The position numbers and the translations under genes were made by a program. A stretch of DNA of 64,000 nucleotides from an uncultured Hellea sp. (GTDB lineage Bacteria; Pseudomonadota; Alphaproteobacteria; Caulobacterales; Maricaulaceae): the NCBI GenBank assembly GCA_938007935.1, contig CALLMD010000013.1, positions 20,912 through 84,911 on the forward strand, in the 5' to 3' direction. A model generated the notes under the pieces. It was not told the DNA's origin, did no database searches, and saw only the letters and a list, made by a program, of their open reading frames with translations. This document shows positions 23,460 to 27,667 of this stretch, in pieces (within the stretch, counting starts at the first letter, position 1; the number at the start of each line of letters is the position of its first letter).

Positions 23460-24404
23460 TTAAAACGTTGCCCGAAAGGCTTCAATGAATCGATTTAAAT
23501 CACTTTCTTGCAAGTGATTAATGCCCGCTGCGGCGCTACGGCCTCCGCCCGTTTCAAATTGCAGCGCCAGTTTATCGGCGCCTTCGCGCTTAGATAATGG
23601 CGCGCGGATACTAACGAGGAATCCGCCAGCCTGCTGGGTGAGAATAGCGTGAGCCCGATTTGGATTATCTTGTGCCAACTGATTACCATAAACGCCAGAA
23701 ATACGGCGCGACCCAGCGGCGTCCGCAAGGGTAATGACATGACCTTTTTCAGTTTGGTCAATGACCTTTGCCTGCTTGGCATTGGCAAGATCAGTTTCAT
23801 AACCGGCCTCTAGCTTATTAAATACAGTTTTATTTTCAGCCAAAAACGTCATTGGAGTCTCAAAAGGCGCAAGCGCGCGGTAAAGGTCAGCGGGATGATA
23901 AAGCAGGTCCTCAACTGAGCCGCCATAACCATTATAATTAACAAGCATGCCGAGCCTATTGAGCTGTTCTAGGGGAAAATCATGCCCCGCCGCTTTGCGC
24001 GTAGCAAGCGCTGGAAAGTTATCGCCAAATGCAGCCGTCACGGCCCAAGCCAAATATTCACCGTCAAGGGCTTCATTGATTAACATGGCGGTGCACATTT
24101 CTGGCGAGGTATCGATAACCGAAATCAGATTTGGATGGTCGGGAATATCACCCGCATTATGGTGATCCACATAAAAGACTGACGCGTTGGCATCTAAAAT
24201 CCGCCGTAAATCATCAGCGTTACTGCGCATGGAAATATCAAGCACAGTCACATAATCACCGCCCTTGGCATCAACGCGGCTAAGCAATTTGATGTCGCGC
24301 TTGCGCCCCGTGACTAAAACGGCTTCACGCGGTTCAGCAAGGCGAAGCTGGACGAGAGATAATATTCCGTCTGCATCACCATTAAAAACATCAAAGCACT
24401 TCAT
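23460..24404 (-). CDS. DHH family phosphoesterase
   Basis: FNGDADG, YVDHH, C-terminal DHHA1-like TGGGRSAAAG; start revised to ATG 24404, directly after the cysNC stop. Confidence 0.85.
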   Translation of the reverse strand: MKCFDVFNGDADGILSLVQLRLAEPREAVLVTGRKRDIKLLSRVDAKGGDYVTVLDISMRSNADDLRRILDANASVFYVDHHNAGDIPDHPNLISVIDTSPEMCTAMLINEALDGEYLAWAVTAAFGDNFPALATRKAAGHDFPLEQLNRLGMLVNYNGYGGSVEDLLYHPADLYRALAPFETPMTFLAENKTVFNKLEAGYETDLANAKQAKVIDQTEKGHVITLADAAGSRRISGVYGNQLAQDNPNRAHAILTQQAGGFLVSIRAPLSKREGADKLALQFETGGGRSAAAGINHLQESDLNRFIEAFRATF

Positions 24405-24405
24405 G

Positions 24406-26318
<1,913 letters not shown>

Positions 26319-26319
<1 letters not shown>

Positions 26320-27425
26320 TAGAAATACCCCTCTTCTTTTTTCTGCTCCATTGAAGCGCCCGCATCCGAATCAATGACCCGCCCTTGTCGCTCCGATGAT
26401 GTTGTTAAAAGCATTTCCTGAATAACATCAGGCAGTGTATCAGCTTCACTTTCGACCGCCCCTGTTAAAGGGTAACAACCTAGTGTTCTAAACCGTACCA
26501 TTTTTTCTTCGATCTTTTCATCGGGTCCAATTGGCATCCTATCATCGTCCACCAGAATCAAGACGCCGTCTTTTTCAACAACAGGACGTTTCTTGGAGAG
26601 ATAAAGCGACGGAATTTGAATGTTTTCCTTGTAAATATATTGCCAGATATCCAGCTCAGTCCAATTCGAGATAGGAAAGACGCGCATGCTCTCACCCTTA
26701 TGAACGCGTGTATTATAGATGTTCCAAAGCTCAGGGCGTTGGTTCTTTGCATCCCAACGGTGATTTTCAGACCGGAAACTAAAGATACGCTCTTTGGCGC
26801 GAGATTTTTCTTCATCGCGGCGCGCCCCGCCAAAAGCTGCGTCAAATTTATACTTATCTAAAGCCTGCTTTAAGCCCTGTGTTTTCATGATGTCCGTATG
26901 AACCGCTGACCCATGGGTGAACGGTCCAACCTTATCAGCTTTGCCTTCGGGGTTGATGTGAACGATTAAGTCCATGCCAACTTCTTTGGCGCGGCGATCA
27001 CGAAATTCGATCATTTCTTTGAACTTCCACATCGTATCAACATGCATGAGCGGAAATGGCGGTTTGGATGGATAGAAAGCTTTTTCAGCTAAGTGCAACA
27101 TAACCGAGCTATCTTTCCCCACGGAATAAAGCATGACGGGGTTTTCGCATTGTGCGGCCACTTCGCGCATAATATGAATGCTCTCGGCTTCAAGCCTGTC
27201 CAAATGCGTCATACGCAATTTAGACTCGCCAGAAAGCTCCATCTCAAGCGCATCGAGCTTGACCAAAGCCTCTTCCAAAGTCTTGAGCGTACATTGTCCG
27301 CCCTCTTTGAGACGGGCAATGCCCTTCCCATCATTGAGGATCTTTCGCGAAACCGTCGAAAGGGATTGGCCATTCGCTGCGGCAAAGGCTTCAACTCGGG
27401 CTACAAAATCAGTTATCAGTGTCAT
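26319..27425 (-). CDS. cysD: Sulfate adenylyltransferase subunit 2 with a 71-aa N-terminal Cro-like HTH extension
   Basis: CysD core from M27212 ([50 protein letters not shown]); upstream in-frame region open to ATG 27425 (or GTG 27452). Confidence 0.93.
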
Positions 27426-27435
27426 ATTTACCAAT

Positions 27436-27453
27436 CGTGGGATATATCCCACG
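27436..27453. promoter_or_regulatory. Perfect 18-bp palindrome, putative operator
   Basis: CGTGGGATA|TATCCCACG, 10 bp upstream of the extended cysD ATG. Confidence 0.65.
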
Positions 27454-27580
27454 TCCTATTTAGGCGCTCCTATAATGAGAAATTCAGAAAATAAAAGAGT
27501 TTTTTTCATCTAAGCGAAAAAGGGCTTGCCCGAACAGCCAAGCCCGCTTAATCAGCGCGCAGACCAATCTCTTTGTCTTT

Positions 27581-27667
27581 GCGGGCGTGGTGGAATTGGT
27601 AGACACGCAAGACTTAAAATCTTGTTCCTGTATAGGAGTGCCGGTTCAATTCCGGCCGCCCGCACCA
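27581..27667 (+). tRNA. tRNA-Leu(UAA)
   Basis: GCGGGCG/CGCCCGC acceptor stem, anticodon arm CAAGA-cttaaaa-TCTTG, long variable arm, GGTTCAATTCC, encoded CCA. Confidence 0.96.

Follow-up and report, generated by a model that had tools for sequence, protein, structure and literature searches.

BirA of E. coli is both a biotin protein ligase and the bio repressor, and it features an N-terminal helix-turn-helix (HTH) domain and an adenylate-forming enzyme in one polypeptide, which acts on a palindromic operator located at the pathway operon's promoter. The HTH of BirA is winged and its dimerization on DNA is driven by biotinyl-AMP; to our knowledge, the birA gene itself is not regulated by BirA. 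PutA, the flavoenzyme of proline utilization, is an active enzyme that represses its own gene via several operators in the promoter region. It is a catabolic protein with an N-terminal ribbon-helix-helix domain and is switched by membrane association. In the bacteria investigated to date, the known regulators of sulfate assimilation, such as CysB, are separate proteins. BzdR from Azoarcus consists of a DNA-binding domain at the N-terminus, a linker, and a shikimate-kinase-like domain that has lost its activity and is used solely as an effector sensor, and it was argued that regulators arise by enzymes recruiting DNA-binding domains (PMC3602430). Here, a stretch of 64,000 nucleotides from an uncultured Hellea sp. 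(Alphaproteobacteria; contig CALLMD010000013.1), referred to as the window, was analyzed. It encodes a CysD protein, sulfate adenylyltransferase subunit 2, that is extended at its N-terminus by a predicted HTH domain (HTH-CysD), and a perfect palindrome is located directly upstream of the gene. It is highly probable that this palindrome serves the cysD operon as a conserved DNA operator, and the sequence comparisons described below make it likely that the fused HTH domain binds this operator and represses the operon. The first enzyme of sulfate assimilation appears to carry its own repressor domain, which reads one dedicated site at its own promoter.

The palindrome at the start of cysD

The sequence CGTGGGATATATCCCACG forms a perfect 18-bp palindrome at positions 27436-27453 of the window, and the ATG of cysD follows on the minus strand at 27425-27423 after a 10-nt gap. 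Read on the minus strand, the region 5' of cysD is ...CATTATAGGAGCGCCTAAATAGGA-CGTGGGATATATCCCACG-ATTGGTAAAT-ATG. The palindrome features two half-sites of 6 bp each with a centre-to-centre distance of 10 bp. Neither the window nor the 2.94-Mb genome (47% G+C) contains a second copy of the exact sequence, and the runner-up match has 3 mismatches. A preliminary description of this DNA had reported the palindrome, its distance from the ATG, a smaller near-palindrome (CCTATTTAGG) at 27455-27464, and a gap with no clear Shine-Dalgarno (SD) sequence, and all of these are present as described. Conservation of the near-palindrome was not found in the upstream regions of relatives or in the Hellea alignment, and on this comparison it is best treated as a chance occurrence.

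There is an in-frame GTG at 27452, which lies within the palindrome and extends the mechanical open reading frame (ORF) of cysD to 377 aa. This GTG does not keep the reading frame in close relatives; the conserved start codon is the ATG at 27425, which is therefore the real start of cysD.

Conservation of the site across HTH-cysD loci

A genome search revealed extended, HTH-fused CysD proteins in 20 relatives. The upstream regions of these 20 relatives feature GTGGGAT-N-ATCCCAC immediately 5' of the ATG, and their flanks are unalignable beyond the genus. In an alignment of 11 Hellea loci, GTGGGAT..ATCCCAC is the sole fully invariant intergenic block; a few further invariant T/A columns are located upstream and match the -10 and -35 boxes inferred for the cysD promoter. 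A scan for the N-terminal domain in one genome per GTDB species determined 201 encoding stretches, and 80 of these 201 loci were taken for comparison. The 80 loci come from Hellea, Litorimonas, Algimonas, Robiginitomaculum, Maricaulaceae, Parvularculaceae (Amphiplicatus and Marinicaulis), and a few Sphingomonadaceae.

The site was sought in 85 distinct HTH-cysD upstream regions as a match of at least 10/12 to GTGGGA-N4-TCCCAC located no more than 150 nt from the start. Such a match is present in 84 of the 85 regions (38 perfect, 31 with one mismatch), and the remaining region (locus L087) has GTGGGACGGTTCCCA, which overlaps the ATG. The preliminary description had named fusion-bearing relatives without the palindrome as a result that would speak against it; none were observed, as 85 of 85 keep a site. 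The rate of sites per position is 1.2e-2 upstream of HTH-cysD and 3.8e-5 across the remaining 234 kb of these loci, a difference of ~300-fold. The position matrix shows that TGGGA and TCCCA are near-invariant, the outer G/C is weaker, and the 4-bp centre is variable with 86-88% A+T, giving the operator consensus (C)GTGGGA-N4(A/T-rich)-TCCCAC(G).

These data bear on the possibility that the palindrome is a functionless chance occurrence or a terminator-like hairpin, the probability of which is negligible. The genome contains 13 perfect palindromes of exactly 18 bp and 27 of at least 18 bp, and first-order Markov simulations gave an expectation of ~17 of at least 18 bp per genome and ~0.4 per 64-kb window; perfect 18-bp palindromes thus occur at about the rate expected from composition. 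A consensus scan also labels the sequence as terminator-like on the plus strand. However, chance does not account for a site that is conserved at every locus despite diverged flanks and that co-occurs with the fusion genome-wide. A Rho-independent terminator was considered and rejected. The plus-strand hairpin was flagged by the consensus scan, but a U-run is missing from its tail, TCCTATTTAG, and on neither strand does a gene end upstream of the hairpin. The palindrome is located between two divergent 5' ends, and therefore no transcript arrives to be terminated.

Co-occurrence with the fusion and uniqueness in the genome

Of 151 genomes sampled evenly from the order, 36 have the HTH-cysD fusion and 115 do not. 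The perfect 12-base pattern was found in the fusion genomes at 14 sites (in 11 of the 36), and all 14 are located within 110 bp upstream of HTH-cysD. Among the 115 fusion-free genomes the perfect pattern is present once each in 11 genomes (0.10 per genome), and a control with the reversed pattern gave 13 sites in the 151 genomes, which equals the rate of the fusion-free genomes. The matches in fusion-free genomes feature mostly G/C-rich spacers, and those that were checked (G026 and G034) are distant from cysD. The motif is absent upstream of unfused cysD in the same order (0 of 10 genes). The preliminary description had asked whether the palindrome co-occurs only with extended CysD; in these counts, every perfect site of the fusion genomes is at HTH-cysD and the fusion-free genomes are at background.

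The Hellea genome contains one perfect motif and one copy of the HTH domain. The preliminary description had also raised further genomic copies, and with them a regulon. A genome scan found no second credible site, matches of at least 10/12 are no commoner than chance, and the two 11/12 and two 10/12 near-matches that were examined in the Hellea genome are all within ORFs. The earlier proposal that the palindrome is the cognate autoregulatory operator of the fused HTH agrees with the co-occurrence at the fusion's own promoter, with the absence of the motif from the 10 unfused cysD genes, and with the single-copy state of both motif and domain; binding by the domain is the part that we infer from this pattern.

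Separately, three fusion-free genomes of genus g11 (G026:C17:201923, G076:C3:278190, and G106:C1:909392) share the same 16-mer, GTGGGAGGTCTCCCAC, which probably represents a conserved element, coding or otherwise, with no relation to the operator.

The same genome sample addresses the possibility that the operator is genuine and that another trans-acting regulator, such as a MarR-type protein, binds it while the fused HTH acts elsewhere. A MarR_2 gene (PF12802, E 6e-12), whose product has an N-terminus like MTEIT...ERFILHWGD, is located divergently beside HTH-cysD in Parvularculaceae-like loci (L085, L088, L093, L096, L101, L109, and L110), and the MarR-type gene shows this divergent pairing in each of the 15 family-f6 genomes in which it is present. 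Hellea has a homologue that is 55% identical and is located elsewhere in the genome (C23:21091-21639, L117). However, the search for the MarR-type gene was negative in 13 of the 36 fusion genomes (all at least 99% complete), where the site is kept, and the gene is present in 17 of the 115 genomes that lack the fusion and the site. The MarR-type protein, the sole alternative binder that was noticed, is therefore not the general binder and was rejected as such on its phyletic distribution. There is also no copy of the motif at the MarR-type gene's own locus in the Hellea genome. Any other binder would have to share the phyletic pattern of the fusion and its single target, which is less parsimonious than binding by the fused domain, and a separate regulator is considered unlikely.

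The HTH domain, the CysD enzyme, and the operon

The HTH domain features 18 invariant residues, including S21, T24, S26, R27, K28, N31, D32, G33, R38, and L39. The AlphaFold model of the domain has a predicted local distance difference test (pLDDT) score of 84 and contains helices at residues 3-18, 22-30, 35-40, and from 47 onward. The best 50 Foldseek matches in the PDB are nearly all HTH proteins of the Cro/cI/XRE type, among them 434 repressor, C.Esp1396I, HipB, SinR, and ClgR. The Cro/CI-type label of the preliminary description may apply at the level of the fold only (Foldseek, E >0.4), and no Pfam match accompanies it. XRE-type models did not match any of 17 homologues of the HTH domain at E values up to 10. 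A LacI-family HTH was considered as well; PF00356 had a best E value of 0.008 in 4 of the 17 members, which is below the cut-off, and PDB 3ctp, a sub-threshold LacI-HTH match, has an E value of 0.56. This assignment was dropped for the Foldseek fold result.

A profile of phrog_7669, a phage family of unknown function, matches the Hellea HTH domain with an E value of 2.5e-7, and 9 of 9 stand-alone homologues tested match the same family. A profile search of 1.84 billion representatives determined 450 relatives of the HTH domain. Most of the best 150 of these 450 are 60-110 aa in length, some of which may be fragments of fusions from short contigs. The motif is absent upstream of the stand-alone HTH paralogues in two relatives (G042 and G046), one of which features a different palindrome.

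Several further features of this family were observed. Many stand-alone homologues of 63-75 aa (among P0026-P0148) end in ...AA (e.g., SEAA, QAA, PAA, or RSAA), which resembles a C-terminal degradation tag. In P0081 the HTH family is joined to a C-terminal part that is possibly NAD-synthetase-like and whose match to CN-hydrolase is weak and sub-threshold. In P0100 it precedes a second stretch that has the appearance of an XRE-type HTH, and in P0085 and P0101 it is placed after an unclassified N-terminal domain.

CysD is 368 aa in total, of which the N-terminal extension makes up ~70 residues. Residues 95-322 match PF01507 (E 1.6e-55), and residues 71-368 match CysD from Pseudomonas syringae (PDB 1ZUN_A) with an E value of 1.2e-144. 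The SVGKDS motif and the other CysD motifs are invariant with those of unfused CysD. HTH-CysD is the only CysD of the Hellea genome, and its CysD part is predicted to be catalytically competent. The start of cysNC overlaps the stop of cysD (26319), and the two genes therefore belong to the same operon. The DHH-like gene is probably the third gene of this operon and may encode a phosphoadenosine-phosphate phosphatase that completes it. The features of the locus are collected in Table 1.

Table 1. Coordinates of the HTH-cysD locus and its neighbours within the window.
Feature	Position	Strand	Remarks
Putative operator	27436..27453	none	Core GTGGGA-TATA-TCCCAC at 27437-27452; from sequence, uniqueness, conservation, and co-occurrence with the fusion
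Inferred -10 box of the cysD promoter (cATTATAg)	27470..27476	minus	Invariant T..TA columns in the Hellea alignment
Inferred degenerate -35 (CTTTTA)	27492..27497	minus	Weak; aligns with CTTTACA/TTGAC of relatives
AGGA, sole SD-like purine run	27454..27457	minus	28 nt before the ATG; adjoins the 5' side of the palindrome (mRNA strand)
N-terminal HTH domain of CysD, residues 1-63	27237..27425	minus	Four-helix Cro/XRE-like fold, predicted
Linker, residues 64-73	27207..27236	minus	Low pLDDT in the full-length model (residues 65-73); length and sequence vary
CysD body (sulfate adenylyltransferase subunit 2)	26319..27206	minus	Intact PP-loop SVGKDS
cysNC (GTPase subunit fused to APS kinase)	24406..26319	minus	GTP_EFTU and APS_kinase domains
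DHH-like gene	23460..24404	minus	Near-gapless after cysNC; weak DHH match (E 6e-4), under the Pfam cut-off
Small near-palindrome CCTATTTAGG	27455..27464	none	4-bp arms; outside the system
Divergent tRNA-Leu(UAA)	27581..27667	plus	ARAGORN and Rfam; neighbour, outside the system

The promoter and the one- and two-site layouts

The promoter of cysD is tentatively placed by the recurring offset of TTGAC/TTTACA and by conservation in the alignment. A conserved -10-like box is located ~17-25 nt upstream of the palindrome, and relatives feature a cTATATg-type box in the position of the inferred -10 of Hellea. An A-tract at 27500-27506 precedes the inferred -35. Transcription is predicted to start at ~27463, which would result in a leader of ~38 nt that includes the operator at about +11 to +28. 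The earlier idea of a leaderless or short-leadered mRNA is therefore unsupported, because this start would place the operator within the leader. The predicted location at +11 to +28, between the inferred -10 and the ATG, is a repressor position.

Hellea and its closest relatives have the proximal site only. In more than half of the related loci (e.g., L044, L069, L070, L077, and L100), a second, equally good site is located 50-105 bp further upstream; the cultured Litorimonas cladophorae KCTC 23968 is among the two-site carriers. A TTGAC or TTTACA hexamer starts 5-8 nt past the distal copy in 20 of 42 two-site loci and is followed by a cTATATg-type box 16-17 nt on. In this layout the two copies would flank the promoter, and the distal copy would be outside the mRNA. 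The spacings of the operators cluster near 57, 68, 82, 93, and 104 bp. Helical phasing of the two operators was considered, and its signal is weak (R 0.56 at ~12 bp and 0.40 on unique values); phasing is not claimed, as the period came from a scan over related loci.

The distal copy also suggests a different direction of regulation, in which HTH-CysD binds but activates, or switches with a ligand, like a class I activator from the distal site. In the two-site loci the distal copy adjoins the -35 and would have its centre near -50, which is a typical activator position, and the -35 of Hellea is poor, as at activator-dependent promoters. Against this stands the arrangement in Hellea and its closest relatives, where the only copy is the proximal one, downstream of the inferred -10 and next to the ATG. 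Activation is thus improbable, about as much so as binding by a separate regulator, and repression is the preferred direction.

The region that holds the distal site in other clades is the tRNA-Leu promoter region in the Hellea clade. An effect of the palindrome on the divergent tRNA-Leu promoter, which had been suggested earlier, finds no backing in the comparison; the tRNA is near the site in only 21 of 60 related loci, and the site is ~110 bp upstream of the inferred tRNA start. A separate observation concerns positions 27517-27554, where a conserved inverted repeat, GGGCTTG...CAAGCCC, is followed by TTTTT on the minus strand. This element is terminator-like and directed at cysD. It overlaps the apparent plus-strand promoter of tRNA-Leu (TTGCCC, 15 nt, GCTTAATC), and the block is conserved in the tRNA-bearing Hellea loci.

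DNA site or RNA element

The GGG/CCC core of the site does not vary across families, although the flanks are saturated with changes, and the 4-bp spacer varies freely. Changes that disrupt pairing were found 13 times at pair 2/15 and 18 times at pair 6/11, and compensatory double changes were found 0 times. Rfam searches with E values up to 1 matched only the tRNA, and the z-score of the leader fold is -1.4. A palindrome that is recognized by a protein as DNA, and not as RNA, is favored by this pattern of substitution.

The opposite possibility is a palindrome whose main role is that of an RNA hairpin in the 5' leader of cysD, for control of translation or stability or for repositioning of the SD. 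The predicted transcript would include the proximal copy, which folds into a stem of 7 bp and a loop of 4 nt. A canonical SD was not found in the 10-nt gap between palindrome and ATG, and the location of the SD-like run shifts with the position of the site. In the 52 loci where the site abuts the ATG, Hellea included, the SD-like run is 5' of the site in 31 and between the site and the ATG in 4. Where the site is 13-60 nt from the ATG, the run is in its normal place in 19 of 20 loci, as determined with a looser pattern than for the abutting loci. Once transcribed, the operator might form a hairpin that draws the displaced SD (AGGA) close to the ATG, giving a split ribosome-binding site. However, the invariance of the core, the lack of compensatory changes, the fold score, and the lack of an Rfam family are not those of a conserved RNA structure, and equally conserved distal copies are located upstream of the inferred -35, outside the mRNA. 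A palindrome that serves mainly as an RNA hairpin is very unlikely, and a secondary RNA role beside the operator role is conceivable.

Proposed mechanism

In the proposed mechanism, the operator would be bound by a dimer of the ~63-residue Cro/XRE-like HTH domain, which is joined by a flexible linker to the N-terminus of CysD. The 10-bp distance between the half-sites is the geometry expected of a dimeric HTH protein; the half-sites are one helical turn apart, which would bring the two recognition helices onto a single face of the DNA. Occupancy of the operator would block RNA polymerase at initiation or at promoter escape, so that the direction of regulation would be repression. As a result, the first enzyme of the pathway would exert negative feedback on its own cysD-cysNC(-DHH) operon. 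At loci with two operators, cooperative binding or looping may occur.

It can be speculated, by analogy with BirA, that DNA binding is gated by ATP, adenosine 5'-phosphosulfate (APS), 3'-phosphoadenosine 5'-phosphosulfate (PAPS), or CysNC. A more elaborate scheme is that of a trigger enzyme whose DNA binding responds to catalysis or assembly; its APS- or nucleotide-bound form, or CysNC-free form, for example, would dimerize on the operator, so that flux in sulfate activation would directly set operon transcription. In this scheme, the same palindrome would additionally provide the hairpin-split ribosome-binding site. This combination is a tentative proposal with a low probability.

Several points weigh against an operator that is read by the fused domain as a repressor. 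A perfect 18-bp palindrome alone is statistically ordinary, and the significance of the site therefore rests on the conservation and comparative data; the related genomes that were compared are, in turn, non-independent samples. At the promoter, a sigma-70 consensus scan called no promoter at cysD, and E. coli-type promoter scores between the two sites are 7.4, compared with 6.9 ± 1.2 for shuffles. On the side of the protein, the Foldseek matches of the HTH domain are all non-significant (E >=0.47, template-modeling (TM) score ~0.5), and a Pfam family for the N-terminal extension was not found at E values up to 1. The recognition residues and the core of the motif are both invariant, so that there is no covariation in specificity linking the protein to the DNA. 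Additionally, CysD works with CysN, whereas binding to a palindrome calls for a dimer.

Comparison with known systems

The best fold matches of the HTH domain are to 434 and lambda Cro/cI and to C-proteins such as C.Esp1396I, and the likeness extends to the DNA. The operators of 434 and of C-proteins are pairs of short, conserved half-sites that are separated by about one turn of the helix and enclose a variable, A/T-rich centre, and a promoter often has more than one such operator. The HTH-CysD operator is built in the same way. Unlike 434, lambda, and the C-proteins, which are small and free-standing, the HTH-CysD domain is fused to a metabolic enzyme, its half-site is GTGGGA, and it has no match to Pfam HTH_3/XRE. 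The two-site loci resemble LacI O1/O3 and GalR OE/OI, in that an operator just past the start is combined with an auxiliary operator upstream of the -35, which in the two-site loci is 50-105 bp away, a layout that permits looping. Hellea differs from the two-operator promoters of LacI and GalR in having a single operator.

A full-text literature search found no paper describing the HTH-CysD fusion or the GTGGGA-N4-TCCCAC motif, and an autoregulatory trigger enzyme with its operator would be new for sulfur assimilation and would involve an uncharacterized HTH family. At least 200 species-level genomes from marine Caulobacterales, Parvularculales, and a part of the Sphingomonadales have this arrangement. 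The operator, unique per genome, is a short and sharply defined sequence, and carriers are available in culture (Hellea balneolensis, such as strain DSM 19091, and Litorimonas spp.); the hypothesis is therefore directly testable. For annotators, the locus provides a simple rule for recognizing the extended CysD and its regulatory site.

The predicted domain structure of HTH-CysD corresponds to the architecture of the enzyme-repressors, or trigger enzymes, BirA, PutA, and NadR, in which a DNA-binding domain and an enzyme are combined in one polypeptide. Trigger enzymes also have a cognate operator at their pathway's promoter, and the putative operator at cysD corresponds to this second feature. 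Compared with BirA, the DNA-binding domain of HTH-CysD is Cro/XRE-like and the target is the enzyme's own operon. Compared with PutA, HTH-CysD gives no indication of a ribbon-helix-helix domain, a catabolic role, or membrane switching. Like BzdR, HTH-CysD joins a predicted DNA-binding domain through a linker to a domain derived from an enzyme; unlike in BzdR, the CysD part keeps all motifs that are invariant in its family and is the sole CysD of the genome. If the proposed reading is true, HTH-CysD would be a natural example of an active enzyme that has recruited a DNA-binding domain, a stage that was reconstructed artificially for BzdR (PMC3602430).

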